From a virus, in the IMG/VR virus record IMGVR_UViG_3300045988_077292, positions 1 through 38,533 of that record: 38,533 nt of DNA. One strand, written 5' to 3'. The notes under the pieces were generated by a model. That model saw only the letters and a list, made by a program, of their open reading frames with translations. It was not told the origin of the DNA and ran no database searches. A program made the position numbers and the translations under genes. Below, in pieces: positions 1 through 33,613 of the stretch (position 1 is the first letter of the stretch; each line of letters starts with the position of its first letter).

Positions 1-55
1 AGCGGTGGATGGATAGGTAATGGAGTGTACGATGCATCGTTCACCAGTGACACAG
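1..55. repeat. Terminal overlap copy 1 (identical to 38479-38533)
   Basis: agcggtggatggataggtaatggagtgtacgatgcatcgttcaccagtgacacag occurs at both ends. This is typical of a circular contig closed by a k-mer overlap. Confidence 0.95.
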
Positions 56-3000
56 CGAGGTATATAGAGCGCCAGCAGGCAAAGAAACGTGTAGCTGAAT
101 TGCGAGGTGTCCCGTATGACCAGTTTGATGATGGAAACATACGCTACTCCCGGCGTGACGTGGGGCTGGACGACACGGCGGAGCAGCGCCGCGGCAGACA
201 GGAAAGCTACGCAGATCTCAGACGCAGGAACGCGGAGCTTGAGCGGCGCGTGGAATACTGGAAAGGTCAGACGAGGACAAGCAAGGCAGCGACCGTGCGC
301 CAGACGGACACGGACGCATTCGCCCGGCAGCTGATGAACGACGCATACAACAGTGACCGGGAGACGCTGGGTAAGGTGAAGGACAGCCTCAAGGGGCTGG
401 GCGATTACATTGTGCAGTCGAGGGCGGAAGACCTGGACTATGCCACGATACACGAGATTGCCACGGAGACGGCGGACATGATACTGCAAGGGTCATACAC
501 CACCATCGACGACACGAACGCGGACAACCGCGAGCAGCTGCACGACTATCTGCACAGCACGAAGCTTGCCATGAACGAGCGGGAAATGCTCGACCTGCCG
601 GAGGGCTGGCGCCAGAAGAACCGCGGCAACATCAAGCTGAGCAAGGACGGGCTGCCGGTAGACACAGCGTATGGAGAGCTGCAAGGGATGTTCGGCGAGG
701 GAACATTCCCCTCGGACATCACAAGCCAGGCAGACATGCTGCAGCGCATAGCGGACGTGGAGCGGGCGTGGAGACCCGTGAAAGCCAACCCGTTCGCAGA
801 GTACATGGCGGAGATGCGCGAGAACATGGCACAGGAGATCATAGACACAATGCTGTCGGATGAGATACGCCAGACCCCGCCCACAGCAATGGACAGAGCC
901 GTCGCCCGTGAGACGGAGCGCGTCGCCGGGGAGCGGAGAAAGAACCGTGAGCTTCAGCAGCGCATAGCACAGGTGCAGCAGGAGGGCATAGAGCGCACGA
1001 GGAAAGCCGTGCAGGATGAACGGCGGTTTCAGCTGCAGCGGCAGGAGCGGGCACAAAAGGTGAAGAACATAGAGAAGATGATCACCCGCTGGGCAAAGCA
1101 GCTGACGGACAACACGGGCAAGAGCCACATACCCGACGCGCTGAAACAGCCGATAGGGCAACTGATACGGAGCATAGACCCGACGACAAAGTACACCACA
1201 GCAAAAGGCAGCGCCGCCCTCGCGGACCGTCTGCGCCGGGTGGGCGACGCACTGGAGAAACAGCAGAAATACAACATGGGCGACACCGCGGAGGGCGGCG
1301 CGGATGTGTACATCGACCTGCCGCCAGAGATAGGCAGCCGACTGCGGGAATATGCAGAAGATATTGAGGACGCAGCAAGCATACGGCGCGAGTGGAAGCT
1401 GGAGGACATGGACTTGCAGGAGCTGGCGGAGCTGGAAGATATGCTGACCAGCGTGCGGGATTCTCTCAAGAACGCAAACGAACTGTACAGCATGAACATG
1501 AAGGCGGACGCGCTGGGCGACGAGACAGTGAAGTATCTGAACAAGCTGCCCGCAAAAACCAAGGCGGCGAGATTCGAAGAGAAGTTCCTCGGCTACACAA
1601 ACCAGACCCCGGTGTATTTCTTCAAGCGCTTCGGCACAGGCGGAGAAAAAGTATTCAAGTCCCTTGCCGATGGTTGGGAAGACTTCGCATTCAAGGCAAA
1701 TGCAATACGGGAGTTTGCTGAAAAGCTGTACAACTCCAAGGAGGTACGCGAGGCGGAGCAGACCATAGTGCAGGTGCAGCTGCACGACAAGCTTGCAAAC
1801 GGGCTGACGAACGAGGAGACCGTGCCGGTGTACATGACCAAGGCACAGATCATGTGCCTGTACGGGGCGACACTGCGCGGCGAGGCGGCGCTGAATCACA
1901 TCCTCGGCGCCGGCATAAAGCTCACGGACATCAAGCAGCCACGCGGGAAGGACACGATCACGCAGAGCGACAACTACCTCACCACGGCGGAGGAGTTGGA
2001 AAGCATCATCAACGACAACCTCAGTGAGCGGGATAAAGAGATCGTGCGCGGCATGATAAAGTTCATGAGCACAACGTGCGCGAACTGGGGCAACGCCGTG
2101 AGCCAGAAGCGCTGGGGAATCAATCTGTTCACGGAAGACAGCTACTGGCCCATATCCACGGACAGCCGCAGCCGCGACGTGAAGAGCGGCGAGGCGGCGG
2201 GCAGCAGCACAAGTATGTACCGGCTGGCAAACATGGGCTTCACAAAGCCGCTGACGCCGGGGTCAACAAACCCGATGGTGATAGGCAGCGCGTTCGATGT
2301 GTTCGCCAACCACACATCCGACATGGCAAAGTACGGCTCAATGGTGCTGCCGATACTGGACGCGATGAAGTGGATAAACTACAGCGCTACGATGGAGACG
2401 AGCGGGACACAGTACACCACGGCGTCCGTGCGCAAGGCGATGGACAGAGCTTACGGCGTGGACGCACAGAACTATTTCGTGAAGCTCATGCGTGACCTCA
2501 ACGGCAGCAAGGAGGGCGGCAGAGAAACCAACGGGTTGGAGACATGGACAGCAAGATACAAACGGCAGGCAGTGTCCGGCAACCTCCGCGTCATGCTGCT
2601 GCAGCCGACAGCTTACGCACGCGCCGGGATGGTGATAGACCCGAAGTATCTGGTCGTCGGAGCGATCGGGCAGCACGAGGTAATAAAGAACTACCGGGAG
2701 GCGATAGCAAACAGCGGCACGGCACTGTGGAAGAGCATGGGGTTTTACGATGTGAACATCAACGCCTCCATGCGGGACCTCATAAAGAACGACGAGAGCG
2801 CCGTGGACAAAGTTGTCGACTGGACGATGAAGGGCGCAGAGCTTGGCGACCAGTGGACGTGGTCGATGATCTGGCGGGCGTGCCGGACGGAGCAGCAGGA
2901 CATAGCGCGCAAAGGCAGAGAACAGCTGACACATGAGGAGCTTATGCAGCGCACGGCGGAGCGCTTCCAAGAAGTGATCTATCAGACGCAGGTGATGGAT

Positions 3001-4761
3001 TCCACACTGACGCGCAGCCAGATAATGCGGAGCGACGACAAGCTGAACAAAGCGCTGACTTCGTTCATGGCAGAACCGACGCTGACATACAACACGCTGT
3101 CGAACACGTACCTTGAGTACCAGAGACTGAAAGGTGCGGAGGGCGCGCAGACGGCGTGGAAGAAGTGCGGCGGGCAAATCGCCCGGGCGCTGGGCGTGTA
3201 CACGGTGAGCGCGGCGCTGCAAGCGGTAGTGGAGAGCATACCGGACGCATGGCGCGACGACGATGAGTACATGACGTTCATGGAAAAGTGGCTTGAAAAG
3301 TTCTGGGGCGAGGAGAGTTTCCTTGATGGCAACCTCGCGTCGGAGCTGAATCCGTTGAACAAGCTGCCGGTAATAAAGGATCTGCTCAATGCGCTGGAGG
3401 GACACGCATCAACCAATATGTCGACCGAGGGATTATCTTCGGCAGTGAAGTTCCTCAATACCTTCTGGGATAAAATCCAGTACTGGCTGGGAGAGACGGA
3501 CGGCTCAGACATAAAGGTCACAGATTGGGGCTGGATATATCAAGGGTTGAAAGCCGTGTCACAGTTGGTAGGCATACCGGGGTACAACATCGTGCGTGAT
3601 GTAGTAGGTGTTTGGAATTCAACCTTTGGCACATGGACGGATATGAGAATCAGAACGTATGCGGCGCGCCCGGAGAGCGAGATAAAGAACGCATACCTCA
3701 AGGGGTATCTGACTGATGAGGAAGCCAAGGAGCTGCTGATGGACGCCAAGACCATGGGCGACAATGTGTACTGGACTGAGCACGCCGCCACTGTACAGAT
3801 AAACGATTGGGCGAACGACAGCGGAGAGGTCTACGCAGATCTGTACACCGCAATGGAGAACGACGATCGCACGGCATACGACGCAGCGTTCAAGGCATTG
3901 ACCGACACGGGACGCTACGCCTACGACGTGCAGAGCAAGGTGAAAGAACAGATCAAGGAGTGGTATGCCGGGGACAAGCGCGGCAAGATTGTACTTGCGA
4001 AAGAGCAGACCATAGCAATGCTCAAGGAGTTCGGCGGCATGACAGACCATGACGCCAAGGTCACAGCACAGCAGTGGACGTGCAAGCAACAGGAGGGCTT
4101 TGACTACAGCCAGAGAAAGAAGCTGTTCCTCTCCGGGGACATTGACAAAACAGAAGCGGTGTACTTGATAAAGACCTATGGTGTGGACGACGACGGGAAG
4201 CTGCTGGCGGACTATAAGGACAAGACCAAGGCAAACGCAATCGCGGAAAAGGAAGTGCGCAAGTGGTCGATGATAACCGAACAGGGCATAGACTACGACG
4301 ATATGCGCGACGCCTACAATGCCGGTGAGATCACACTGGCGCAGGTCAAGGAGTGGAGCATGGATTACGGCAGTGAGGATGAGAAAACCGCAGACAACAA
4401 GTGCTACCGCTGGGAATGGATAGCCGGAAGCGAAGAGCTGAAAGGAACGACCGGCGCACAGGCGCGGAGGTACGACACTTACATTGCTGCGGCGAACGTG
4501 GACATGACCAAGGAGCAGTATTACAATTACATCGACGGTCACGAAGCGAATACGTTCCACGCAGACCTCATGCCGGGGAGCACAACGGTGTATATAAAGT
4601 ACTCCAAACGAGACAAGGCATGGGCATACATTGACAGTCTGCCGATCACGGCAGCACAGAAGGACGCGCTGGCAATGTGCTACGCTGCGGACAACAGCAA
4701 AGAACTGAATAACCCCACAAAGACTTGGATGATGCTTGAAGACGCCCCGTGGAACAACTGA
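1..4761 (+). CDS. C-terminal 1586 codons of the giant 2852-aa polyvalent-type virion protein (continues from 34681-38533 across the circular junction)
   Basis: Frame 1 is open from nt 1 to TGA 4759-4761. The listed ORF 25..4761 is only its internal GTG. The same frame is open to the very end of the window, and 38479 is equivalent to nt 1. It contains an FFKRFG motif (1609-1635) and long helical regions. Confidence 0.85.
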   Translation, partial: SGGWIGNGVYDASFTSDTARYIERQQAKKRVAELRGVPYDQFDDGNIRYSRRDVGLDDTAEQRRGRQESYADLRRRNAELERRVEYWKGQTRTSKAATVRQTDTDAFARQLMNDAYNSDRETLGKVKDSLKGLGDYIVQSRAEDLDYATIHEIATETADMILQGSYTTIDDTNADNREQLHDYLHSTKLAMNEREMLDLPEGWRQKNRGNIKLSKDGLPVDTAYGELQGMFGEGTFPSDITSQADMLQRIADVERAWRPVKANPFAEYMAEMRENMAQEIIDTMLSDEIRQTPPTAMDRAVARETERVAGERRKNRELQQRIAQVQQEGIERTRKAVQDERRFQLQRQERAQKVKNIEKMITRWAKQLTDNTGKSHIPDALKQPIGQLIRSIDPTTKYTTAKGSAALADRLRRVGDALEKQQKYNMGDTAEGGADVYIDLPPEIGSRLREYAEDIEDAASIRREWKLEDMDLQELAELEDMLTSVRDSLKNANELYSMNMKADALGDETVKYLNKLPAKTKAARFEEKFLGYTNQTPVYFFKRFGTGGEKVFKSLADGWEDFAFKANAIREFAEKLYNSKEVREAEQTIVQVQLHDKLANGLTNEETVPVYMTKAQIMCLYGATLRGEAALNHILGAGIKLTDIKQPRGKDTITQSDNYLTTAEELESIINDNLSERDKEIVRGMIKFMSTTCANWGNAVSQKRWGINLFTEDSYWPISTDSRSRDVKSGEAAGSSTSMYRLANMGFTKPLTPGSTNPMVIGSAFDVFANHTSDMAKYGSMVLPILDAMKWINYSATMETSGTQYTTASVRKAMDRAYGVDAQNYFVKLMRDLNGSKEGGRETNGLETWTARYKRQAVSGNLRVMLLQPTAYARAGMVIDPKYLVVGAIGQHEVIKNYREAIANSGTALWKSMGFYDVNINASMRDLIKNDESAVDKVVDWTMKGAELGDQWTWSMIWRACRTEQQDIARKGREQLTHEELMQRTAERFQEVIYQTQVMDSTLTRSQIMRSDDKLNKALTSFMAEPTLTYNTLSNTYLEYQRLKGAEGAQTAWKKCGGQIARALGVYTVSAALQAVVESIPDAWRDDDEYMTFMEKWLEKFWGEESFLDGNLASELNPLNKLPVIKDLLNALEGHASTNMSTEGLSSAVKFLNTFWDKIQYWLGETDGSDIKVTDWGWIYQGLKAVSQLVGIPGYNIVRDVVGVWNSTFGTWTDMRIRTYAARPESEIKNAYLKGYLTDEEAKELLMDAKTMGDNVYWTEHAATVQINDWANDSGEVYADLYTAMENDDRTAYDAAFKALTDTGRYAYDVQSKVKEQIKEWYAGDKRGKIVLAKEQTIAMLKEFGGMTDHDAKVTAQQWTCKQQEGFDYSQRKKLFLSGDIDKTEAVYLIKTYGVDDDGKLLADYKDKTKANAIAEKEVRKWSMITEQGIDYDDMRDAYNAGEITLAQVKEWSMDYGSEDEKTADNKCYRWEWIAGSEELKGTTGAQARRYDTYIAAANVDMTKEQYYNYIDGHEANTFHADLMPGSTTVYIKYSKRDKAWAYIDSLPITAAQKDALAMCYAADNSKELNNPTKTWMMLEDAPWNN

Positions 4762-4872: not shown

Positions 4873-4948
4873 ATAGGCAAGGTTGACAGGGCGGTCGCCC
4901 CGCCCGGCATGAGCCGAAACAAAGCAGAAAGATATGGAGGCAACCGAA

Positions 4949-5962
4949 ATGAACAGCAAAAAATATTGGCTACAGTACTTCGCTGACGGCGCACCTGCAG
5001 GAGACGGCGGCGGAGACGGAGCCGCAGCGGGCGTAGACAGTCCTGCCGCCGCCGGGCAGGGAGAGAGCACAAGCACTCTGGAAAGACTGGGAGTTCCGAA
5101 GGACAAGGTCAAAAGGTATGAAGCGTCGAGGCAGCGGCGCGGGATGAGAACGGAAGCGGCACAGCCGCCTGAGACGTCCCCGGCTGCGGCAGAGGCAGAA
5201 GCCGAAGAAAGTGACGCCGGAGCGGGCGCACAGACCAAGCCGAAGTGGGACGACATTCTGAAAGACCCGGAGTATAAAGCGGCATTCGATTCACAGGTGA
5301 GCGGGATCCTCAGCAAGCGTCTTGCCAAGGCGAACGAGCGGGAGCAGAGCATGGCAAAGCTCACCCCGGCGCTGGAAATGCTGGCGAAGAAGTACGGCGT
5401 GGACGCGCGGGACTTCGACGGCTTGACGGCGAAGATCGTTGACGACGACAACATGTACCGCGAGCGCGCAGCAGAGATGGGCGTGGACGTGAAGACCGCC
5501 AAGCTGCTCGCCCAGAACGAGAACATGGTGGAGCACGAGAAGGCGGAGAAGCAGAACTTCATCCAGCAGCAGATGGTGATGAACCATATCGCCAAGCTCA
5601 ATGAGCAGGGCAACGCGCTGAGAGCGGAGTTCCCGGACTTCAACCTTGAAGCCGAGATGCAGAACGATATGTTCGTGAAGCTGACGCAGCCGGGTATGCT
5701 GTCGGTCGAGGACGCATACAAGGCGGTGCACCGCAAGGAGATCGAGGCCGCAAAGAAGCAGGCAATGGAGCAGCAGGCAATGATCGCTGCCCAAGCCGCA
5801 GTGAGAGCGGGACAGGCGCGTCCCCGTGAGAACGGGGCGGGTGCTGCCGCAACGATAACCCGCGTACCTCCGGCACAGCGGAGCAAAGCGGAAAGAGAAG
5901 AACTGAAACGCCGCATATACGCGGCGGACGCGAGAGGAGAAAAGCTGCCCGTAGACTGGTAG
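4949..5962 (+). CDS. Scaffolding protein (337 aa from ATG 4949)
   Basis: The protein is A/E/K/Q-rich and helical, and lies immediately upstream of the capsid gene. GGAGG at 4936-4940 sits 8 nt before ATG 4949. The N-terminus MNSKKYWLQYFAD parallels the capsid N-terminus. The track start 4934 is less likely. Confidence 0.75.
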   Translation: MNSKKYWLQYFADGAPAGDGGGDGAAAGVDSPAAAGQGESTSTLERLGVPKDKVKRYEASRQRRGMRTEAAQPPETSPAAAEAEAEESDAGAGAQTKPKWDDILKDPEYKAAFDSQVSGILSKRLAKANEREQSMAKLTPALEMLAKKYGVDARDFDGLTAKIVDDDNMYRERAAEMGVDVKTAKLLAQNENMVEHEKAEKQNFIQQQMVMNHIAKLNEQGNALRAEFPDFNLEAEMQNDMFVKLTQPGMLSVEDAYKAVHRKEIEAAKKQAMEQQAMIAAQAAVRAGQARPRENGAGAAATITRVPPAQRSKAEREELKRRIYAADARGEKLPVDW

Positions 5963-5996
5963 CGCACATCCTCTCGGATAAGGAGAGGAAAACATA

Positions 5997-7139
5997 ATGA
6001 ACAAATTCAAATGGCTGCAGTATTTTGCAGACGCCGGTACGCTTGTCAATGCGACCGGCAACTACGTCAACGCATACACCGGCGACACCACGGCATTCTC
6101 CGGCACGAACGACCTCACAGGGGAGCTGAAAACGTTCTATGACACGGAGCTGTTGGAGAACGCGCGCATCGAACTGTACTACGCTCAGTTCGGCAAGCGT
6201 CAGTCGCTCCCCAAGAACCACGAAGGCAAGGTGGAATGGAGAAAGTTCAACACCTTTGCCCGTGCGGACAAACTCGTCGAGGGCGTTATCCCCACCGGCC
6301 AGAAGCTCGGCATGAGCAAAGTGACCGGCGCTGTCGACCAGTATGGTACTTACACGGCGGTCACGGACAAGCTGGAGCTGCGCGCGTATGACCCGATAAT
6401 CCTTGCGGCGACCGAAGAGATGGGCGCAAGCGCGGCGGAGACACAGGAGAAGCTGACGCGCGACGCGCTGCTTGTCGGCACGAACGTTGTGTACTGCGAC
6501 AACATCGACAAGGAGACCCGCAAGGTGCTGAGCACACCCACGTCCTGCAAGACTATGGGCGCGGGCGGCACCACCACTCCGACCGGGGACGGCACTGCGA
6601 CGCCGGACGGCTGGGCGCTGCTCACGGCGGCGATGGTGGACAAGATCGTCACCATCATGAAGAAGAACCGCGCACCGCGCATCAACGGTTACTACTATGC
6701 AGTAGCCCACCCGTCCGTGCTGTACGATCTGCGCCGTGACCCGGAGTGGATAGAGGCGCACAAGTACGCCGCGCCCGACGCGCTGTTCAACGGCGAGATC
6801 GGCGAGATCGGCGGCGTGCGCTTCATAGAAGACGTGTTTGCGCCGGTGCTGGGCGTGAAGGGCGCAAGCGCCGCGCAGGATGACGAGTACGTCAACAAGG
6901 AGCGAGGCAGGAGCTATGCGACGTACTTCTTCGGCAAGGAAGCCTTCGGCATCATCGACCCGGAGGGCGGCGCGATGGAGATGATCGTGCACGACAAGTC
7001 CGAGATAGGCGGACCGCTGGATCAGTTCAGCACCATCGGCTACAAGCTGGAAACCAACGGCGCGACCATCCTCTACCCGGAGCGTATGCTGCGAGTGATG
7101 AGCGTGTCCTCTTTCAGCGCAGAGGACGAAACCAACTGA
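5997..7139 (+). CDS. Major capsid protein (HK97-fold type, 380 aa)
   Basis: Size and position after the scaffold gene fit. The pattern KTFYDTELLENAR...YAQFGKRQSLPKN.GKVEWRKF is typical of Firmicutes-phage major capsid proteins. RBS AAGGAGAGG. A strong hairpin follows the gene. Confidence 0.8.
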   Translation: MNKFKWLQYFADAGTLVNATGNYVNAYTGDTTAFSGTNDLTGELKTFYDTELLENARIELYYAQFGKRQSLPKNHEGKVEWRKFNTFARADKLVEGVIPTGQKLGMSKVTGAVDQYGTYTAVTDKLELRAYDPIILAATEEMGASAAETQEKLTRDALLVGTNVVYCDNIDKETRKVLSTPTSCKTMGAGGTTTPTGDGTATPDGWALLTAAMVDKIVTIMKKNRAPRINGYYYAVAHPSVLYDLRRDPEWIEAHKYAAPDALFNGEIGEIGGVRFIEDVFAPVLGVKGASAAQDDEYVNKERGRSYATYFFGKEAFGIIDPEGGAMEMIVHDKSEIGGPLDQFSTIGYKLETNGATILYPERMLRVMSVSSFSAEDETN

Positions 7140-7150
7140 TAGAAACATAG

Positions 7151-7174
7151 GCAGGGACACGAGAGTGTCCCTGC
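7151..7174 (+). other. Perfect 10-bp hairpin after the capsid gene (GCAGGGACAC gaga GTGTCCCTGC), no U-tract
   Basis: Read directly. It could be an attenuator or an mRNA-stabilising stem between the capsid and downstream genes. Confidence 0.5.
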
Positions 7175-7196
7175 TGCTGAAAGGAGAACAAACACA

Positions 7197-7505
7197 ATGG
7201 CAAAGGCAAAGACGATAGACGAAGAGATCATGAACGGCGAAGACACCATGATCGACATGGAAGGGGTCGAGACCGTAGCGGTCGAGGACCCGAACGAAAA
7301 GGTGACCATAAGAGTGCCGAGGATCCATCCCAAGGAAGACCCGAATCTCTTCGTGGGCATCAACGGGAAGAACTACATTATCCCCAGAGGCAAGGCGGTG
7401 AAAGTGCCGCGCTTCGTAAAGGAAGAGATAGAGCGCAGCGAAAAGGCGAAGGACAGATTCTACGAGACGGTGGAAGAACTCCTGCCCGAAGAGCAGCTGA
7501 AATAA
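7197..7505 (+). CDS. Small acidic head-associated protein, function unknown (102 aa)
   Basis: RBS AAAGGAG upstream, position in the head module, and a clean ORF. Confidence 0.6.
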   Translation: MAKAKTIDEEIMNGEDTMIDMEGVETVAVEDPNEKVTIRVPRIHPKEDPNLFVGINGKNYIIPRGKAVKVPRFVKEEIERSEKAKDRFYETVEELLPEEQLK

Positions 7506-9780: not shown

Positions 9781-11705
<1,925 letters not shown>

Positions 11706-11709
<4 letters not shown>

Positions 11710-12874: not shown

Positions 12875-13320
12875 CCAAGACCGAGACGCTCGCCGTTATA
12901 CGCGACAGCGCCCGCAATGCGGCGCTCTATCTCCAAACCTGCGCCGGAAACATGACCGGCACGGAGCTGTACGCCGAGGAGGAGTATATCCCCTCATTCG
13001 CCGCCATGTCCGCCTCCGGCAATATGCTTGACCGCCCCGAGGGCTTTGTCTGTCGCTCTTCGGCTGGGCGCGTCGTGTGGCTCATACAGCCCTACAACAG
13101 CGGCATCTACCCCGGAGAGCCGGAGACGCTGCCTGCACAGTGGGGCTTTAAGTGGTCGACCGACCCGGCTAAAGCGCTGCCGTTTATCTCGCTCTCAACA
13201 AGCCCGTACATGACCGGCGACTGCTGCACCGACGGCGGCAAGACGTACCGGAGCAAGATGGACAACAACGTGTATTCCCCGGCGGACTATCCCGCCGGAT
13301 GGGAGGAGGTTACATCATGA
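12871..13320 (+). CDS. Hypothetical protein with a CBM5/12-like C-terminal motif (149 aa)
   Basis: ATGA coupling. The C-terminus YMTGDCCTDGGKTYRSKMDNNVYSPADYPAGWEEV resembles the Y..GD...Y.G..Y......P....W carbohydrate-binding pattern. Confidence 0.5.
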   Translation: MTKTETLAVIRDSARNAALYLQTCAGNMTGTELYAEEEYIPSFAAMSASGNMLDRPEGFVCRSSAGRVVWLIQPYNSGIYPGEPETLPAQWGFKWSTDPAKALPFISLSTSPYMTGDCCTDGGKTYRSKMDNNVYSPADYPAGWEEVTS

Positions 13321-14024
13321 GCATCAACCAAGACGCCGTAGCGTGGGCACGGCGCATTGCCGCCGACGACAGTCACGGCTACGACCAGACCAACCGCTGG
13401 GGCGCGGATTACGATTGCAGCAGCTTTGTGATCAGTGCATTTAAGGCGGCGGGCGTGCCTCTGGAGTGTACATACACCGGCGATATGCGCGGGGATATGC
13501 TGCGCCGGGGCTTTGCGGACGTCACAGCGTCCGTCAACCTTTCAAGCGGCGCGGGCGTGCAGGAGGGCGACGTACTGCTCAACTACGCGCGACACACGTC
13601 GCTCGCCATCGGCGGCGGACGCATCGTACAGGCGAGTATCAACGAGCGCGGCACGGCGACAGGCGGTACGCCCGGCGATCAGACCGGCAGGGAGATATAC
13701 GAGCGCGCGTACTACAACTACCCGTGGGACTGCGTGCTGCGGTACGTCGGTGATGGCGCGGCAGATGAAGAGGCCGGCGGAGAGTATGTGCCGTCGTACT
13801 GGTACTCCATCAAGCTGCCGCTGCTCAAGCAGGGCATGACGGACCACTCGGTCAACACCGTGCAGCACCTACTGAGGGCATACGGCTATTATGTCGGAGA
13901 CATTACCGGCACGATGGACGCCGCAACCGTCGAGGCGGTCAGGGGTTATCAAGCGAGCCAATGGCTGGATATAGACGGTGAGGTCGGCGTCTTGACGTGG
14001 GGCGTCCTGCTGCAAAGGGGGTGA
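13317..14024 (+). CDS. Endolysin: Cys-His peptidoglycan hydrolase domain (Amidase_5 / CHAP-NlpC-P60 superfamily) plus C-terminal PG_binding_1 domain
   Basis: YDCSSFV with a downstream ARHTSLAIGGG gives the Cys/His signature. The C-terminus GMTDHSVNTVQHLLRAYGYYVGDITGTMDAATVEAVRGYQ...DGEVGVLTWGVLL is a classic peptidoglycan-binding repeat. ATGA coupling at 13317. Confidence 0.85.
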   Translation: MSINQDAVAWARRIAADDSHGYDQTNRWGADYDCSSFVISAFKAAGVPLECTYTGDMRGDMLRRGFADVTASVNLSSGAGVQEGDVLLNYARHTSLAIGGGRIVQASINERGTATGGTPGDQTGREIYERAYYNYPWDCVLRYVGDGAADEEAGGEYVPSYWYSIKLPLLKQGMTDHSVNTVQHLLRAYGYYVGDITGTMDAATVEAVRGYQASQWLDIDGEVGVLTWGVLLQRG

Positions 14025-14082: not shown

Positions 14083-14352
14083 ATGTATATCACTTGGCAG
14101 AGCATCGTGACCGCGGGGGCGGTCATCACGGCGATCGTCGCAATCGTCAAATACTACAACCGCGGTCTGCACTGGGTCGACCGCCAGAACGCGCAGGACG
14201 CAGACATCAAGCTGCTCAAGGACGAGCAGACGCTGCTGACCTATGGCGTGCTGGCGTGTCTCAAAGGGCTAAAGGAGAAGGGCTGCAACGGCCCCGTGAC
14301 GGCAGCCATCGACAAAATCGAGAAGCACCTCAATATCGAAGCACACAAATAA
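14083..14352 (+). CDS. Putative holin / lysis membrane protein (89 aa, one N-terminal TM plus a charged helix)
   Basis: GGAGG sits 5 nt before ATG 14083. It has a TM segment IVTAGAVITAIVAIV and lies next to the endolysin. Confidence 0.6.
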   Translation: MYITWQSIVTAGAVITAIVAIVKYYNRGLHWVDRQNAQDADIKLLKDEQTLLTYGVLACLKGLKEKGCNGPVTAAIDKIEKHLNIEAHK

Positions 14353-14387
14353 AAAAGTGCCCAGACGGGCACGGAAGGAGAAAAATT

Positions 14388-14717
14388 ATGAATGAGATAA
14401 TCACAACCTACGGCATGGAGATTGTTAAGGCAATCGTCATAATGATCTTTGGCTATATCGGCATCGTCCTCAAAAACCTTGCCGCCAAGTACATCACGAC
14501 CGAGACGGCTAAAAAGGTCGCCAAGACCACGGTGGCCTACGTGGAGCAGGTGTACAAGGATATCCACGGAGAGGACAAGCTCGCCGTCGCGCTCAAGACC
14601 GCGTCGGAGATACTCGCGAACAAGGGCATAGTTGTAACTGACACCGAGCTGCGTGCCCTCGTCGAGGCCGCGGTCAAGGAGCTTAACGACAGATACCACG
14701 AGACCCAGAACGAATAA
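14388..14717 (+). CDS. Holin, LL-H-like family (109 aa)
   Basis: RBS GGAAGGAG, N-terminal TM IVKAIVIMIFGYIGIVL, then AKKVAKTTVAYVEQ...GEDKL...ILANKGIVVTDTELRALVEAAVKELN, which is characteristic of LL-H type holins. Confidence 0.75.
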   Translation: MNEIITTYGMEIVKAIVIMIFGYIGIVLKNLAAKYITTETAKKVAKTTVAYVEQVYKDIHGEDKLAVALKTASEILANKGIVVTDTELRALVEAAVKELNDRYHETQNE

Positions 14718-17815: not shown

Positions 17816-19408
17816 TTATTTTCTTGGAACACAAAAGCAAAGCAAACTCTGTGTTATAAGAATTCTTGGTGCCGGTGACCCTACACCGTCAATTCTTATA
17901 ACTGTCTCGGAATCATCTGAGAAATCAAAGTCGCCACGGGGCGTGGGGTCAAGCAATGTCCACACTTTTATAAAGTCGGCATGGACTTCCACGCGGACAA
18001 CTATACTCAAAAGCAAATCATCGGTCTCTGGGGACCGGGCAAACATATTGAGAATTTCCCGCAGTTTATCTTCGGAGACTGACGCCCCGGAGACTTGGGC
18101 TTTAAGCTGGAGCATATCATGTTCCAGCTTTGCTTTTTCTGCTTCCAGCTCGGTGAGCTTGGCGGAGAGAGCGGGACTGTTCAGCCCGGACAACACAGCG
18201 TCAACGGCGGCAGCAATGCGCTTGTCAACTGCGCTGCGGCGGGTCACGAGCTGCTGCAGCTTTTCCCCGGCGCTGCCTTGAAGCTTGCTGCGCTCATCAC
18301 GCAGAATAGCCAAAAGATATTCGACATTGGCGGGAAGGCAAAACAGCTCGCGCATAGTGTCAAGCACGCGCACCTCCAAGTCGTCTACACGAATCGGCAT
18401 ACAATCACACTTGCCCTTGCGCTGCTTGGCGGAGCAAGCATAGTAATAGTACTTCCCTTTTGCCTTGGACACGACCATCGCACTTTTGCATTCTCCGCAG
18501 AACACTTTACCCTTGAGCGGGTAGCTGCGCACGACGGGCGCGCGCCCGGCTTGACTTCGTTTGTTCTCTTGCAGCTTGCGTTGCACACGCTCCCATGTAC
18601 ATCTATCTATGATGGCGGGTACGGCGTCCTCAACACGAATGACAGAGGACGCGGAAGCGTGAGAGTTGCGGCTTCCGTCCGGTCGCTTCTCGACTTTACC
18701 ATAGGTGAGAACACCGATATACTTTTCATTCTTGAGTAAGTCATGCAGAGAGTTTGTGCCGAAGGAGTTGCCGGACTTCGTGGTATACCCAGCTTCGTTG
18801 AGCGCGCGGATGATCTCTCTGTACGTCTTGCCCGATGCATACCACTTGAAAATACTGCGGACTATTTCAGCTTCAGCCTCGCACACGACGTAGCGCCCGT
18901 CGACCACGTTATAGCCCAGCGGGGGCTTGCCGCCTGTATGTCTCCCCTGCTGTGCCAGGAAGCGCATCTTCTCCGTGACCTTCTGCCGTGTCTGCAAAAC
19001 CCAGATCTGATTGAAGAGTGCCATGCTCCCCTCGGTCAAGAAGTTTGTGGGGTCGCGCAGGTCTCCGCCAACCATAGGCTGAGTGACGGAGACAACACGC
19101 ACACCAAGGCGCTCGACCTTTTCGCGGAAGTCAAACCACGCCGTCATCTTGCGAAACATACGGGACTGATCATAGATGACCACGGTGTCCGCACTGCCGA
19201 GAGAGAGCTGCCGCATCATGCGGCTGTATTCGGGGCGGTCATCCTTCATTCCGGAAACGGCCATGTCAGCAAACACATCAAGAACTGGCAAGCCGTTAGC
19301 GTCACACCAACGAGAGCATTTCACAACTTGAACTTCTATGCTGTCCTCATCCTGCCGGTCGGTACTATAACGCGCGAGTATGTACGCGCCATGATGAAGC
19401 GTGGTCAT
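17816..19408 (-). CDS. int: Large serine recombinase (integrase), 530 aa from ATG 19408
   Basis: YILARYSTDRQ is the catalytic Ser motif. A resolvase-like N-terminus is followed by a recombinase domain, a zinc ribbon (CGECKSAM...YYYACSAK...KCDC) and a C-terminal coiled coil. ATGA overlap with the upstream gene at 19405-19408. Confidence 0.9.
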   Translation of the reverse strand: MTTLHHGAYILARYSTDRQDEDSIEVQVVKCSRWCDANGLPVLDVFADMAVSGMKDDRPEYSRMMRQLSLGSADTVVIYDQSRMFRKMTAWFDFREKVERLGVRVVSVTQPMVGGDLRDPTNFLTEGSMALFNQIWVLQTRQKVTEKMRFLAQQGRHTGGKPPLGYNVVDGRYVVCEAEAEIVRSIFKWYASGKTYREIIRALNEAGYTTKSGNSFGTNSLHDLLKNEKYIGVLTYGKVEKRPDGSRNSHASASSVIRVEDAVPAIIDRCTWERVQRKLQENKRSQAGRAPVVRSYPLKGKVFCGECKSAMVVSKAKGKYYYYACSAKQRKGKCDCMPIRVDDLEVRVLDTMRELFCLPANVEYLLAILRDERSKLQGSAGEKLQQLVTRRSAVDKRIAAAVDAVLSGLNSPALSAKLTELEAEKAKLEHDMLQLKAQVSGASVSEDKLREILNMFARSPETDDLLLSIVVRVEVHADFIKVWTLLDPTPRGDFDFSDDSETVIRIDGVGSPAPRILITQSLLCFCVPRK

Positions 19409-19887
19409 CCCAGCCACCACGGGAGCGCGCACATGATGGCGGCGCGAGTGCTCACGCCGTAGTGCGTCTGCTCAATGATGGAGCGGCGGATCCATCCCAC
19501 ATTGGGGTTCAGCAGGTCAATAATAAAAAAGATGAGCACAAAGAAAACAAAGGTAACAAGCCCGGCAATGATACGCCCGTACAGCTCCGCGCGATGCCGG
19601 TCACGCCGCGCCTCTGCTTTCAGCTGCACAACAAGCGGGTCATTCGGCACGGTCACAGGCGGCGCGTCGCGGTGAGAGGCGCCGAGAATATCATCCACGC
19701 TGCCGCCGCAGACATTGATAATGTCGCACAGCAGAAAGAAAGATGGATTCTTCGGTTCCTCGCTGAGCACGCGCCGGACTGTCATGCCGGAGACCTCACA
19801 GCGCTTGGCAAGCTCATCGTAGCTCAGCCCGCTGGCAGAAACAAGCGCACGTATTCTCTCCATAACGGTCTCTTCCTTTTGCGTCAT
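19405..19887 (-). CDS. Membrane-anchored XRE-family HTH protein (160 aa), first gene of the integrase operon
   Basis: GGAGGAGGA RBS before ATG 19887. HTH SGLSYDELAKRCEVSGMTVRRVL, and C-terminal TM IIAGLVTFVFFVLIFFIIDLL. Confidence 0.7.
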   Translation of the reverse strand: MTQKEETVMERIRALVSASGLSYDELAKRCEVSGMTVRRVLSEEPKNPSFFLLCDIINVCGGSVDDILGASHRDAPPVTVPNDPLVVQLKAEARRDRHRAELYGRIIAGLVTFVFFVLIFFIIDLLNPNVGWIRRSIIEQTHYGVSTRAAIMCALPWWLG

Positions 19888-19930
19888 TTTATCCTCCTCC
19901 ATTCGTTTTTTAGATATAAAGATCCCGCCC

Positions 19931-19981
19931 ACAAAACTGTGCGGTAAAATTACAAAAGTGAGAGTTGTTTTCACAAAAGTG
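19931..19981. promoter_or_regulatory. Three ACAAAA(C/G)TG repeats phased at exactly 21 bp (19931, 19952, 19973): operator-like iterons
   Basis: Read directly in the divergent intergenic region between the integrase operon and the small + strand unit. Confidence 0.5.
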
Positions 19982-20076
19982 TAGGGTTATGCTGTGAACA
20001 AGTAAGAATGCTGTCGTTCATCAACTGTTCACAATATACACCAACAAGAAATATATGTCAAGGAGGAACTGAGAAA

Positions 20077-20199
20077 ATGTACCGATTGGATTGTAAGCTG
20101 GGCAGTATGCTGCCGTGCCGGTGCTGCTGCCGTCATTGGTGCTGCCCGGGATTTATGTGGAGACGAGGACGAAGCGGGCGGCGGACGCTGCCGCAGTGA
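20077..20199 (+). CDS. Possible 40-aa Cys/Arg-rich peptide (MYRLDCKLGSMLPCRCCCRHWCCPGFMWRRGRSGRRTLPQ)
   Basis: AAGGAGG at 20060-20066 sits 10 nt before the ATG. The composition is odd, so this may be non-coding. Confidence 0.3.
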   Translation: MYRLDCKLGSMLPCRCCCRHWCCPGFMWRRGRSGRRTLPQ

Positions 20200-20211
20200 G
20201 AGGAGAAAAGA

Positions 20212-20301
20212 ATGAGGCAACTGATAGAGGCGAAGCTGAACGAGGCAACCGAGGAACAACTGAGATACATACTGCTCATGCTGGACAACATGATAAAGTA
20301 G
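20212..20301 (+). CDS. Possible 29-aa helical peptide (MRQLIEAKLNEATEEQLRYILLMLDNMIK)
   Basis: AGGAG sits 6 nt before ATG 20212, and a strong terminator follows immediately. Confidence 0.35.
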   Translation: MRQLIEAKLNEATEEQLRYILLMLDNMIK

Positions 20302-20318
20302 AGCGGGAGAAAAGAGAG

Positions 20319-20355
20319 CCGCCCGGCGCATTAAGCGTCGGGCGGTTTTTTGTTT
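20319..20355 (+). terminator. Strong rho-independent terminator (overlaps the 3' end of the convergent repressor gene)
   Basis: CCGCCCGGCGC attaa GCGTCGGGCGG (11 bp with one G-U pair) followed by TTTTTTGTTTG. Confidence 0.8.
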
Positions 20356-20735
20356 GTATCAGTAGGGAGCTTTTGAAGAAGCTCTAGGAGTTTATCCCAC
20401 TGTTCAACATCTGTGTTACACATAAAATCAATGAGTTTCATTTCAAGCTCATTACCTTTGCCGCTGAGAAGCTTGGTCATGTAGGCAGTTATCTCAGCAG
20501 AGCGGGCAGCGTCCGGATCAAATGTTCCTGCACCATCGCGCAGCCAATCCTCATCAGCTTTGAACTCCCGGCAGATAGAACGAATGGCAACTTCGGACGG
20601 AACACGGACGCCGGATTCCCAAGTCGCAACCGTATTCTGCTTTACGCCAATGCGCTGCCCAAATTCGGCTTGAGAAATATGATGAGCTTTCCGCAAAGAT
20701 TTTATTCGCGCGCCGATTGAATCGACAACAATCAT
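20331..20735 (-). CDS. XRE-family repressor paralog 1 (134 aa)
   Basis: HTH ISQAEFGQRIGVKQNTVATWESG. The C-terminal domain ITAYMTKLLSG..ELEMKLIDFM..DVEQWDKLLEL is shared with the neighbouring gene. Confidence 0.8.
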   Translation of the reverse strand: MIVVDSIGARIKSLRKAHHISQAEFGQRIGVKQNTVATWESGVRVPSEVAIRSICREFKADEDWLRDGAGTFDPDAARSAEITAYMTKLLSGKGNELEMKLIDFMCNTDVEQWDKLLELLQKLPTDTNKKPPDA

Positions 20736-20774
20736 CCCCTTTCAAAATAAATACATCGCCAAGTGATTTTTATA

Positions 20775-20803
20775 TTGACAAACACGAGCTGAAATAATAT
20801 AAT
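20775..20803 (+). promoter_or_regulatory. Perfect consensus sigma-A promoter TTGACA-17-TATAAT, pointing antisense into repressor paralog 2
   Basis: TTGACA at 20775-20780, a 17-nt spacer, TATAAT at 20798-20803. It is flanked by the 9-bp inverted repeat TATATTGAC / GTCAATATA (20771-20779 and 20810-20818). Confidence 0.6.
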
Positions 20804-20831
20804 CACATCGTCAATATAAATATCACAATGT

Positions 20832-21236
20832 CTATTTATTCGGCGGTTTTTCTATTTCGGATATGTTCTTCGCGAGCGGGCGGATGAGTTCGAGGAGCTT
20901 GTCCCACTGGTCAACATCTGTCGCCGCCATGAAGTCTATGAGCTTCTCCTCCAGCTCGGAGCGCTCGCCGGAGAGGAGCTTGCCCATGTAAGCGGCGATC
21001 GCGTCCTTGCGCGAAAGCTCCTTGAACATGGGACCGCCCTCATCGCCGTGCCGCAGCCACAGCTCATTGACACCAAACTCACGGCAGATGTCTGAAATGG
21101 TGCGCTCACTGGGAGTACCGCCACTGACAAGTTTAGATACATACTGCTGAGAGACGTTTATTCTTTTTGCAAAGGCAGTCTTTGTAAGACCTGATTTATC
21201 AACTACCTCGCCTATGCGTTCGTTGATGGTGCTCAT
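20832..21236 (-). CDS. XRE-family repressor paralog 2 (134 aa from ATG 21236)
   Basis: RBS AAGGGGGTG. HTH LTKTAFAKRINVSQQYVSKLVSG. The C-terminus IAAYMGKLLSG..ELEEKLIDFM..DVDQWDKLLEL is paralogous to 20331-20735. Confidence 0.8.
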   Translation of the reverse strand: MSTINERIGEVVDKSGLTKTAFAKRINVSQQYVSKLVSGGTPSERTISDICREFGVNELWLRHGDEGGPMFKELSRKDAIAAYMGKLLSGERSELEEKLIDFMAATDVDQWDKLLELIRPLAKNISEIEKPPNK

Positions 21237-21258
21237 TCTAATCACCCCCTTTGTGCTG

Positions 21259-21287
21259 ACTATATCATGAGGAAAAAACTTTGTCAA
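21259..21287 (-). promoter_or_regulatory. Repressor (lysogenic) promoter TTGACA-17-TGaTATAGT on the minus strand
   Basis: The reverse complement of 21282-21287 is TTGACA, and of 21259-21264 is TATAGT with an upstream TG. It sits about 20 nt upstream of the repressor RBS. Confidence 0.65.
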
Positions 21288-21318
21288 GAAAAAACACAAC
21301 TAAGTGGTGAAAAAATGC

Positions 21319-22358: not shown

Positions 22359-22402
22359 AGCGAAAAATCCTTTCAAAAAATGTAATGGAGGCGAGCGGGA
22401 TG
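22356..22402. repeat. Bidirectional leader cassette copy 1: CATAGCGAAAAATCCTTTCaAAAAATGTAATGGAGGCGAGCGGGATG
   Basis: The left end is the reverse-complement ATG plus leader of the minus-strand gene. The right end is GGAGG-8 nt-ATG of the + strand gene. It recurs at 23001-23046. Confidence 0.85.
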
Positions 22403-22831
22403 AAATTTAATTATGAGCGTTTGAGCAAAAAGATTAAAGAAAAATATCGAGCGCAAGATGCGTTCGCGAAAGTGATTGGGATAACACGCACATCGCTATC
22501 CTACAAGCTAAACGGGAAAAGCTCTTGGCACGCGGATGAGATGTACAAGGTATGCAAAGCGCTCGACATACCGCTGAAAGAAATCCCACGGTATTTTTTT
22601 GAGCCCAAAGGCTCAGTGGCAGAGGCGCAAAGCGCGAGGATGCGAGAACTGAGCAGAGGAGAAGCAGCCGCAGCGGCGCTGACGATGCTGCTGGGTTACA
22701 CGAGGGACATCAACCAGAGGCGCAGACTTGAGTACGGCGACAGCGGGGACGCGGTGCTGGCGTTCAATGAAGAAGCGCTGGAGGAAGCGCTGCGCTGCGT
22801 GGAACTGGTCAACGATTCCGAATGCTATTGA
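22400..22831 (+). CDS. XRE-family HTH early regulator (Cro/antirepressor-like, 143 aa from ATG 22400)
   Basis: GGAGG sits 8 nt before ATG 22400. HTH AQDAFAKVIGITRTSLSYKLNGKSSW. Confidence 0.7.
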   Translation: MKFNYERLSKKIKEKYRAQDAFAKVIGITRTSLSYKLNGKSSWHADEMYKVCKALDIPLKEIPRYFFEPKGSVAEAQSARMRELSRGEAAAAALTMLLGYTRDINQRRRLEYGDSGDAVLAFNEEALEEALRCVELVNDSECY

Positions 22832-29641: not shown

Positions 29642-29960
29642 GGCGGGGTACTCCCCTGCCAGCGCACGCACAGCCGGGTATAGGCTGCTGCAAAAAGATG
29701 ATGTGCAGGAGTACATACGCGAGCGCCTGCGCGAGATAGACGAGCAAGAGATAGCCAAGACCAACGAGGTACTGCGCTTTCTGTCAAGCGTCATGCGCGG
29801 AGAAGTGCAGGACCAGTTCGGGCTTGACGCACAGCTGGCGGACAGGATAAAGGCAGGGACGGAGCTGCTGAAAAGATACGCCTCGGTCGAGGCGGAGGAA
29901 AAAGGCGCGGAGGCTGTCACCATTGAGTTCGTCGCGCGGACGGAGGAGGCGGCGCAGTGA
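29562..29960 (+). CDS. terS: Terminase small subunit (132 aa from ATG 29562)
   Basis: KFAEAYIRLNNQTQAAIEAGYSPASARTAGYRLLQKDDVQEYI is the typical Terminase_2-type HTH N-terminus. AAGGAGG sits 6 nt upstream. Confidence 0.85.
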   Translation: MKKLPPKKMKFAEAYIRLNNQTQAAIEAGYSPASARTAGYRLLQKDDVQEYIRERLREIDEQEIAKTNEVLRFLSSVMRGEVQDQFGLDAQLADRIKAGTELLKRYASVEAEEKGAEAVTIEFVARTEEAAQ

Positions 29961-31390
29961 AGCGACTGGAGATACCGGAGCCAAGCGCAAAGCAATGGCT
30001 GTTCCTGCGGGACCGGCACAAGTACGTATGCTACGGCGGGGCGCGCGGCGGCGGGAAGAGCTGGGGCGTGAGGGTCAAGGCGATACTGCTGTGCGAGAAC
30101 TACGCCGGCATAAAGGTGATGATCGTGCGCCGGAGTTACCCGGAGCTGTACGCCAACCACATAAAGCCGCTGACAGAAATGCTGCGGTGCGACAGCGAGA
30201 ACGACGCGCTGGCAAGGTACAACGACCAGCGCAAGGAGATGGCATTCCCCAACGGCAGCAGAATCATTTTCAGATGCTGCGAGCGGGAGCGGGACGCGGA
30301 CAGATTCCAGGGCACAGAAGTGGACGTGCTGTTCGTGGACGAGGCGACGCACCAGACCGAGAGCGTGATGGCAAAGCTGACGGCGTGCGTGCGAGGAGTA
30401 AACGATTTTCCCAAGCGGGTGTATTACACCTGCAACCCCGGCAACGTGGGGCACGAGTGGGTGAAGCGCCTGTTCATTGATCGGCATTACAAAGACGGCG
30501 AGACCCCGGAGGACTACAGCTTCATCCAAGCCGGTGTGCGGGACAACGTGGCGCTGATGAAAGCACAGCCGGACTACATCAAGCAGCTGGAAGCGCTGCC
30601 AGCGAAGCAGAGGGCGGCATGGCTGGACGGAGACTGGGACGTATTCGAGGGCGCATTCTTCGATGACTTCCGTGTGACGCCGGACATCAAGGCGGCGAGA
30701 GACGCAGGGTGCGATCTGTCCCCGGAGGAGATGAGACGGCAGCACAAGTGGGTGCACGTCATCCCGGCATTCGACCTCAACGCCGGGGCAAGCCGGGGCT
30801 GGAACATCATCCGCAGCTACGACTTCGGCTATGCCAAGCCGTTCTCCTGCGCGTGGTGGGCGGTGGACTATGAGGGTGTGCTGTATCGCATACTCGAATG
30901 GTACGGCTGCACGGACACACCGAACGAGGGCATACGCTACACCCCGGAACAGCAGTTCGCAGAGATAGCACGCATTGAGCGGGAACACCCGTGGCTAAAA
31001 GGAAAGCGCATTGACGGCGTGGCAGACCCAAGCATATGGGACGCGAGCCGAGGAGAGAGCATAGCAGAGACGGCGGCGAAGTACCGAGTGTGGTTTTCTC
31101 CCGGAGACAATCAACGCATACCCGGATGGATGCAGTGCCATTATCGCTTGCAGTTTGACAACGAGGGCTACGCCAGAATGTATGTGTTCGACACGTGCAA
31201 GGCATTCATACGCACGGTGCCGCTGATGCAGCACAGCGTACACAAGCCGGAGGACTTGGACACGACGCAGGAAGACCACGTGTGTGACGAATGGAGATAC
31301 ACCTGCATGTCAAGACCCATTGCCCCGCTGGTCAAGAAAGAGAACGCACACCCGATGATAGACCCGCTGAATATGTTCAGCAAACAATAG
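29957..31390 (+). CDS. terL: Terminase large subunit (477 aa)
   Basis: Walker A GGARGGGKSW, Walker B VLFVDEAT, and a C-terminal nuclease region. GTGA overlap with terS. Confidence 0.9.
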   Translation: MKRLEIPEPSAKQWLFLRDRHKYVCYGGARGGGKSWGVRVKAILLCENYAGIKVMIVRRSYPELYANHIKPLTEMLRCDSENDALARYNDQRKEMAFPNGSRIIFRCCERERDADRFQGTEVDVLFVDEATHQTESVMAKLTACVRGVNDFPKRVYYTCNPGNVGHEWVKRLFIDRHYKDGETPEDYSFIQAGVRDNVALMKAQPDYIKQLEALPAKQRAAWLDGDWDVFEGAFFDDFRVTPDIKAARDAGCDLSPEEMRRQHKWVHVIPAFDLNAGASRGWNIIRSYDFGYAKPFSCAWWAVDYEGVLYRILEWYGCTDTPNEGIRYTPEQQFAEIARIEREHPWLKGKRIDGVADPSIWDASRGESIAETAAKYRVWFSPGDNQRIPGWMQCHYRLQFDNEGYARMYVFDTCKAFIRTVPLMQHSVHKPEDLDTTQEDHVCDEWRYTCMSRPIAPLVKKENAHPMIDPLNMFSKQ

Positions 31391-33301: not shown

Positions 33302-33613
33302 ATGACCAAGATAACATACGACGCAGAGAACTACACCTTGGAGATGGACGGGCACGCCGGAGCGGGAGCGCCGGGACAGGACATCGTGTGCGCGGCAGAG
33401 ACGATACTCATGCGGGCGCTCGTCGCCGCAGTGATGGATGAACAGTCAAAACTCTGTCCCTCAGTGCGGCAACGGAGCGGGTACGCAAAGGTGCAGTGCG
33501 CCCCCACACCGAGAGCAAAGACAATGTGCAAGGCAATGATGCAGACGATCTTCATGGGATATGAACTGCTCGCCCAGCATTACCCGGAGCACGTCAAGGT
33601 ATACACAGCATAA
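33302..33613 (+). CDS. prp: Prp-like cysteine protease (DUF464 / ribosomal-processing protease family, 103 aa)
   Basis: GHAGAGAPGQDIVCAAETIL matches the GHA...DIVCAA His/Cys dyad signature (H18, C30). The size is typical of the family. Confidence 0.75.
   Translation: MTKITYDAENYTLEMDGHAGAGAPGQDIVCAAETILMRALVAAVMDEQSKLCPSVRQRSGYAKVQCAPTPRAKTMCKAMMQTIFMGYELLAQHYPEHVKVYTA

Follow-up and report, generated by a model that had tools for sequence, protein, structure and literature searches.

Prp is an essential protease specific to Firmicutes that is studied as an antibiotic target, and its discovery goes back to phage 80alpha, which uses the enzyme of its host. Escherichia coli is reported to lack both Prp and the extension of bL27. 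The capsid and scaffold proteins of 80alpha and the ribosomal protein bL27 have been shown experimentally to be cleaved by Prp between phenylalanine and alanine (PMC5744158, PMC9405229). The published sites are MLKLNLQFF'ASKK in Staphylococcus aureus L27, ...LNLQHF'ASNN in the 80alpha capsid protein and ...FNLQFF'ADQS in the 80alpha scaffold (PMC9405229 Table 1; PMC5744158); the apostrophe, here and below, marks the scissile bond. A Prp-family protease can also be encoded by a phage: orf13 of Streptococcus phage Cp-1 trims the N-terminus of the major head protein (PMC12445089, PMC9405229). The window considered here, a stretch of viral DNA of 38,533 nucleotides (nt) from IMG/VR record IMGVR_UViG_3300045988_077292, combines traits of 80alpha, which depends on host Prp, with traits of Cp-1, whose phage-encoded C108 protease cuts a different kind of site. 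It encodes its own member of the Prp family and has short leaders with the core of a Prp site on both its scaffold-like protein and its major capsid protein. It is probable that this protease pairs with the two leaders and cuts both at F'A. No description of a phage-encoded Prp paired with bL27-type leaders was found in the searchable literature, although a remark to that effect in the original Prp papers is possible. The features that carry the argument are these:

4936-4940, plus strand: GGAGG ribosome-binding site for ATG 4949, with an 8-nt spacer
4949-5962, plus strand: scaffold-like protein, 337 residues; phrog_13908, E = 7e-47, function unannotated
4949-4981, plus strand: scaffold leader MNSKKYWLQYF; predicted scissile bond F11'A12, between nt 4981 and 4982
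5997-7139, plus strand: major capsid protein of the N4-gp56 family, 380 residues; TIGR04387 capsid_maj_N4, PF25209, phrog_1357
5997-6026, plus strand: capsid leader MNKFKWLQYF; predicted scissile bond F10'A11, between nt 6026 and 6027
33302-33613, plus strand: Prp-family cysteine protease, 103 residues; its ATG lies 4 nt after the portal stop; PF04327, phrog_4478 'peptidase'

The scaffold-like protein and the capsid protein have the seven residues WLQYFAD in common, within the leader at the extreme N-terminus; an earlier note on this DNA had pointed them out, and the translations bear it out. Translation from ATG 4949 reads MNSKKYWLQYFADGAP and that from ATG 5997 reads MNKFKWLQYFADAGT. For the shared residues the scaffold gene has tgg cta cag tac ttc gct gac (4967-4987) and the capsid gene has tgg ctg cag tat ttt gca gac (6012-6032). 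Synonymous differences separate the two copies at four of the seven codons, so that the pair does not reflect a recent DNA duplication; the conservation lies at the level of the protein, as the earlier note had it. A six-frame scan of the window with LQ[FYLWM]F[AGS] found two sites only, each N-terminal, one in the scaffold and one in the capsid. No further N-terminal copy emerged from a looser scan of all plausible window genes and a giant open reading frame (ORF) of 2852 residues; additional Prp substrates in the window were rejected, since no other gene has the motif at its N-terminus. A 7-mer common to both proteins, at any place in them, arose in 7 of 20,000 composition-preserving shuffles, a count that does not yet include the condition that both be placed among the first 13 residues. 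Both leaders have the form of Prp substrates, with about 6-27 residues at the extreme N-terminus and (L/I)-Q-x-F followed by a small residue. A position-specific table gives the same core for capsid, scaffold and Clostridia bL27 sequences, and the likeness drawn by the earlier note to known Prp sites holds against the published bL27, 80alpha capsid and 80alpha scaffold sites (PMC9405229, PMC5744158).

Which codon starts the scaffold gene? The ribosome-binding site and the comparison with relatives support ATG 4949, which is probably the start and a better candidate than ATG 4934. The block GGAGGCA is kept in the relatives L002, L005, L006 and L012, while L002 has the upstream ATG (4934 in the window) out of frame and L012 lacks it. 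The same preference had been stated before, on the strength of the motif.

Position and composition suggest that the product of 4949-5962 is a scaffold. The next gene downstream is that of the capsid protein, and homologues of the scaffold-like protein occur in 223 of 243 related loci. The leader M1-F11 is followed by a linker rich in Gly, Ala and Asp, with a predicted mature N-terminus of ADGAPAGDGG..., and the protein has no Pfam match. The capsid protein, which has 5497 database relatives, scores 194 bits against TIGR04387 (cut-off 60) over residues 37-368. Its leader and the first ~25 residues of the mature protein, whose predicted N-terminus is ADAGTLVNATGNYVN..., fall outside that model.

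The earlier note had named the product of 33302-33613 as the candidate protease, and it was found to have the Prp fold together with the predicted catalytic histidine and cysteine. Its membership of the Prp family (PF04327, MEROPS C108) is established by four independent lines of evidence. The match to the Pfam model PF04327 Peptidase_Prp (E = 4e-13, 49.8 bits, gathering score 27) spans profile positions 1-90 of 90. The predicted catalytic residues are His18 (codon 33353-33355) and Cys30 (codon 33389-33391), and 19 phage homologues all have G17, H18, G25, D27, C30 and A31, giving the signature GH...G.D.VCA with a His-Cys spacing of 12 residues. When a profile of the 19 homologues was compared with the PDB, it matched only Prp entries (2g0i, 2idl, 4peo/7kld, 7jvs and 1s12); H18 and C30 align with H22 and C34 of S. 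aureus Prp, and the C34S variant of 7jvs falls in the same column. An AlphaFold2 model of the protein has a predicted local distance difference test score of 93.6 and a predicted template modelling (TM) score of 0.84. In a Foldseek search of the PDB with this model the best 14 matches are all Prp (2g0i/j, 2idl, 7kld, 7jvs, 1s12 and 4peo), with TM scores of 0.68-0.81, the highest being to 7kld, and matches beyond these 14 have E > 0.03.

Judged by its sequence, the window Prp is a member of the family and not an orthologue of the cellular Prp that processes ribosomal protein. All 11 NCBIfam Prp equivalog models give it 16-37 bits against cut-offs of 122-225; the highest-scoring one reaches 37 bits, where 171 are required (PRK14553 equivalogs). 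The gene lies in the head module, between the portal gene and ORF346, and has no rplU-prp-rpmA context.

Are the leaders conserved in related phages? A set of 243 capsid-anchored loci was drawn from IMG/VR and GTDB genomes, and the counts that follow rest on redundant, related metagenomic contigs, many of them from one IMG sample. The N-terminal pattern x-L-Q-x-F-A-(D/E)-A-G is present in 119 of the 120 best capsid homologues (66-94% identity), the exception being GFQFFAD. All 206 capsid homologues with a covered N-terminus have (L/I)-Q-x-F'A, and in 178 loci a Prp gene is found on the upstream side of the capsid gene, between portal and scaffold; the loss of the motif from protease-carrying relatives, which the earlier note had set against its own proposal, was thus not what was found. 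The capsid leaders are 6-27 residues long, and their sequence is not conserved before P6. Position P3 is an invariant Q; L or I at P4, F at P1 and A at P1' are near-invariant, and the mature N-terminus ADAGT(L/V)VNATG is highly conserved. A variable leader followed by fixed P4-P1' residues and a fixed mature N-terminus is the pattern expected of a protease site that precedes a structural N-terminus.

In ~130 of 218 scaffold homologues (~60%), LQxF is followed by A, G or S and then by a linker rich in Gly, Ala, Asp or Glu. The scaffold leaders are more variable than the capsid leaders, as in HGLQVF'GGEGG (L036), IWLQLF'GGEG (L032) and IWLQWF'SEDG (L026), and some have a decayed look (LNLALFDGEGG in L130, LDLTLFGEGSG in L143). 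There are also scaffolds with no leader in phages whose capsid protein has one, for example L011, L055 and L167.

The capsid and scaffold leaders of one phage tend to agree with each other. Agreement at P5 was 29, compared with 9.5 +/- 2.6 in permutations, and at P2 it was 40, compared with 19.9 +/- 3.0; the observed total was reached by none of 10,000 permutations, a statistic that is inflated by relatedness. Because the leaders sit in non-homologous genes, this concordance points to a shared reader.

The protease gene keeps its place in the head module. Its median distance upstream of the capsid gene in the 178 loci is 1.35 kb, and it directly follows the portal gene in 72 of 79 portal-anchored loci. 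There is no Prp within 10 kb upstream in 25 capsid loci, and all of these except L211 are of the rearranged type to which the window belongs. Within that type, L327 and L328, the nearest relatives, have Prp immediately behind the portal (7 nt), and so does a group at 78% identity. Prp had appeared to be missing from the closest relatives, which was a search artefact: the portal-anchored check found it in L327 and L328. A fusion of portal and Prp in L048, L052 and L054 was also rejected, as the frames in question are Arg/Gly/Ala-rich shadow frames that are out of frame with the portal. In L043, L048, L052 and L054, high-GC (guanine plus cytosine) shadow ORFs of 450-626 residues run into Prp and mimic fusions in mechanical gene calling.

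The usual order in relatives is portal - Prp - scaffold - capsid, with homologues of ORF346 and the giant gene beyond the tail genes. The order in the window is terminase - portal - Prp - ORF346 - giant gene - scaffold - capsid. Since most relatives have the former, the window represents a rearranged subgroup in which ~11 kb separate the protease from its predicted substrates. The protease and substrates that the earlier note had paired are thus both present in the window; they are not adjacent, as ORF346 and the gene for 2852 residues intervene.

The pairing extends beyond this capsid family. Viral contigs that carry Prp with unrelated capsid families also have the leader on the downstream scaffold or capsid gene. 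An example comes from a cultured gut phage:

OP172779.1 (L245, Dorea phage DO134P1): Prp-like ORF at 5001-5252, scaffold-like gene at 5394-6035 and capsid gene at 6052-7254

Here an unannotated Prp-like ORF lies just upstream of a scaffold starting MANLQLF'AEGDG, and the capsid protein, of a different family from that of the window, starts MHDIRKLGLQVF'TAPDG. Bacillus phage Page, a distant capsid relative without Prp, served as a negative control and has no motif on its capsid or scaffold protein.

Which hosts do these phages infect? The capsid homologues in GTDB are nearly all in metagenome-assembled genomes of Oscillospiraceae, Ruminococcaceae and other Clostridia, and some are on contigs of 100-300 kb in such assemblies, which fits prophages. 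Oscillospiraceae and Ruminococcaceae are therefore candidate hosts. The bL27 sequences retrieved from Clostridia start MLKIN(I/L)QLF'AHKKG; the query carried the motif itself, which introduces a slight retrieval bias, and the sequences represent Clostridia generally and no specific host genome. With these general sequences, the comparison with host bL27 that the earlier note had proposed is borne out for the core (I/L)QLF'A. It fails at P5, where the window leaders have W and bL27 has N, and at P2, where they have Y and L, respectively.

How does the window locus compare with the systems described so far? It resembles 80alpha and S. aureus Prp in the protease family, the fold and the His/Cys dyad (here predicted), in the short N-terminal leaders ending in LQ-x-F'A on both capsid and scaffold, and in the predicted scissile bond; the 80alpha scaffold also shares F'AD with the window leaders. 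80alpha, however, encodes no such protease and uses the essential ribosomal enzyme of the host, whose gene lies between rplU and rpmA, whereas the window phage has its own divergent copy in the head module. The leaders have W at P5 and Y at P2, where the 80alpha and S. aureus sites have N and F/H. The window phage combines an N4-gp56-type capsid with a P22-like portal, in contrast to the siphovirus-type capsid of 80alpha. The Cp-1 protease (MEROPS C108, clan CR) is likewise a phage-encoded Prp-family cysteine protease with the major capsid protein as substrate. By contrast with the window, 48 residues are removed there, the sequence ...ARINH'ATVP has no LQxF core, and the scaffold candidate has no such leader. 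The protease gene of Cp-1 is surrounded by tail and collar genes and does not follow the portal, and Cp-1 is a phi29-like podovirus with protein-primed replication.

HK97-like head modules hold a prohead protease in the order portal - protease - scaffold - capsid. Classical prohead proteases are serine proteases of the herpesvirus-assemblin type; they carry a capsid-targeting segment and usually remove long delta domains or degrade the scaffold inside the procapsid. The window Prp has the same genomic slot and would have the same job, the trimming of capsid and scaffold N-termini in head maturation. It differs in that its fold and chemistry are unrelated: it is a Cys/His enzyme of 103 residues with no targeting extension, and 10-11 residues would be removed. 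The cellular Prp and bL27 of Clostridia share with the window the family, the dyad and the recognition core (I/L)-Q-L-F'A, although bL27 continues with H-K-K-G after the cut and the predicted window substrates continue with D/E-A-G.

The proposed mechanism is as follows. The scaffold and the major capsid protein would be made with a leader that ends in the Prp core, whose positions P4 to P1' are occupied, in that order, by L, Q, an aromatic or aliphatic residue, F and A. Prp would bind the extended leader and cleave the F'A bond, in the way known for S. aureus Prp with bL27 and the 80alpha proteins. The scaffold would thereby lose 11 residues and the capsid protein 10, in agreement with the numbers that the earlier note had given, and the mature N-termini would be ADGAP... 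and ADAGTLVN.... The predicted semi-tryptic N-terminal peptide of the cleaved capsid protein is ADAGTLVNATGNYVNAYTGDTTAFSGTNDLTGELK. As the window Prp has only 103 residues and no capsid-targeting extension, cleavage probably takes place on free subunits or early assembly intermediates and not inside the closed procapsid. We infer that cleavage occurs, that F'A is the site and that the phage enzyme is an agent, rather than or alongside host Prp. The phage enzyme is the likely agent because its gene sits in the head module and is kept almost universally, and because the leaders co-vary. Overall, the comparative sequence data support the interpretation of the earlier note.

Several points weigh against this account. 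The viability of 80alpha does not need cleavage of its capsid and scaffold proteins (PMC5744158). The window Prp lies far below the equivalog cut-offs for cellular Prp, and its specificity could therefore differ. Since the contigs are redundant and related, the counts are not independent observations. About one third of the scaffold homologues have no leader, which suggests that scaffold cleavage is dispensable in the family. Finally, seven portal-anchored relatives and L211 have no portal-adjacent Prp and still keep the capsid motif. In L211 (7539-11077), L369-L371, L394, L396 and L401 the portal is followed by scaffold and capsid without an intervening Prp gene, and the capsid motifs are DLQLF'AEAG, MNMQLF'GAGD and DLQRF'ADSG. 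A Prp gene may lie elsewhere on these contigs, outside the fetched flanks. Such relatives suggest that the motif is not strictly dependent on the phage enzyme and that host Prp could act on it. By analogy with 80alpha, the loci just named are candidates for dependence on host Prp; the host enzyme probably suffices in some lineages, and it may contribute in the window phage too.

Could host Prp then be the enzyme that cuts in general? The leaders would still be genuine Prp sites, cleaved by the ribosomal Prp of the host as in 80alpha, and the phage copy would be redundant or serve another purpose, such as burst capacity, cover for falling host expression or the processing of host bL27. The dependence of 80alpha on host Prp is proven (PMC5744158), Clostridia have Prp-type bL27 leaders with the same core, and the relatives without an adjacent Prp keep the capsid motif. 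The last of these observations is weakened if the Prp of the exceptions lies beyond the fetched flanks. Moreover, Prp is retained in the head module by the great majority of the phages, where it occupies the slot normally held by a prohead protease, and the leaders co-vary within genomes and differ from bL27 at P5 and P2, which fits adaptation to a phage-specific enzyme. We regard cleavage by the host enzyme as unlikely to be the main explanation, at roughly one chance in several.

It is less likely still that the leader is mainly a signal for folding, assembly or co-regulation that is not removed, or whose removal is incidental. The scaffold N-terminus of 80alpha is essential for assembly while capsid and scaffold cleavage is dispensable (PMC5744158), and leaders are kept even where no Prp is adjacent. 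However, the conserved part is exactly the protease core P4-P1', the remainder of the leader is variable, one third of the scaffolds manage without a leader, and a dedicated protease gene accompanies the motif; one leader could combine both roles. That the two 5' ends resemble each other by chance, or through recent duplication or gene conversion without function, has almost nothing in its favour except the shortness of the motif. The codon differences and the uniqueness of the motif in six frames stand against it, as does its conservation in capsid homologues down to ~65% identity and in unrelated capsid families beside Prp, and this explanation is refuted by the comparative data. Cleavage of both leaders by the phage Prp thus accounts best for the locus.

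The remaining features of the window place the protease in a phage genome:

7825-9666, plus strand: 'internal virion protein'; phrog_511; overlaps the preceding ORF
9781-11709, plus strand: tail fibre with collagen-like repeats
13299-14024, plus strand: endolysin (endolysin-like domain and PG_binding_1)
14094-14717, plus strand: holin; the match covers the C-terminal half of the listed ORF, whose true start is probably later
17816-19432, minus strand: large serine recombinase with Resolvase, Recombinase and Zn-ribbon domains
19405-21299, minus strand, and 22385-22831, plus strand: repressor-like helix-turn-helix genes
29957-31390, plus strand: large terminase subunit; PF03237/PF04466, phrog_979, phrog_2
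31406-33298, plus strand: P22-like portal protein; PF16510, E = 5e-27, phrog_156
33628-34668, between Prp and the giant gene: ORF346; no Pfam match
34681-38478 continuing at 1-4761, plus strand: giant ORF, 2852 residues; phrog_22978 (unknown function), E = 3e-155

The window begins and ends with the same 55 bases (1-55 and 38479-38533), a terminal direct repeat that indicates a circular assembly with a unique genome of 38,478 bp. The giant ORF crosses the junction; it has a GTG start after AAGGAGG and an HExxH-like HELTH motif, and the protein has no Pfam match. In the mechanical ORF list this gene appears merely as a piece of 1578 residues together with many minus-strand ORFs; those at 34.9-38.4 kb were rejected as shadows of the plus-strand gene that runs across the junction. 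A scan of 29-38.5 kb for promoters and terminators gave nothing interpretable. The large serine recombinase and the repressor-like genes mark the phage as temperate. All told, the window is best read as a circular genome of 38.5 kb from a temperate, podovirus-like phage whose hosts are gut Oscillospiraceae or Ruminococcaceae.

What does the pairing mean for phages of this group? A mobile-element protease of Streptococcus pneumoniae, Rrp, is a precedent for the bypass of Prp, and the question arises whether phage Prps could likewise bypass drugs that target Prp. There is also a use in annotation, as the Prp ORF of Dorea phage DO134P1 is unannotated, and this phage could serve as an experimental model. 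The F'A site predicts mature N-termini for structural and proteomic work. A bolder proposal, to which we give a low probability, is that Prp and leader form a self-contained, mobile module for capsid maturation that is widespread in phages of Clostridia, on N4-type capsids as in the window and beside Prp on unrelated capsid families such as that of the Dorea phage, and maybe functionally interchangeable with host bL27 and Prp. If this is true, each enzyme could act on the substrates of the other, the phage Prp on host bL27 and the host Prp on phage capsids. The extension of bL27 in Firmicutes and the leaders of the phages would then belong to one exchanged system seen from two sides, which would give direct access to the question why bL27 has a cleavable extension.

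In recent papers on Prp the bL27-like leader on 'some staphylococcal bacteriophages' is still called unexplained (PMC12324487; bioRxiv 10.64898/2026.08.10.744006). In the gut Clostridia, a large group of phages combines the protease with capsid and scaffold proteins that have the leader. This family holds natural variants, including scaffolds with or without a leader, sites with A, G or S at P1' and lineages without a phage Prp. These variants make it a tractable system in which to study the purpose of the cleavage and the evolution of Prp specificity.

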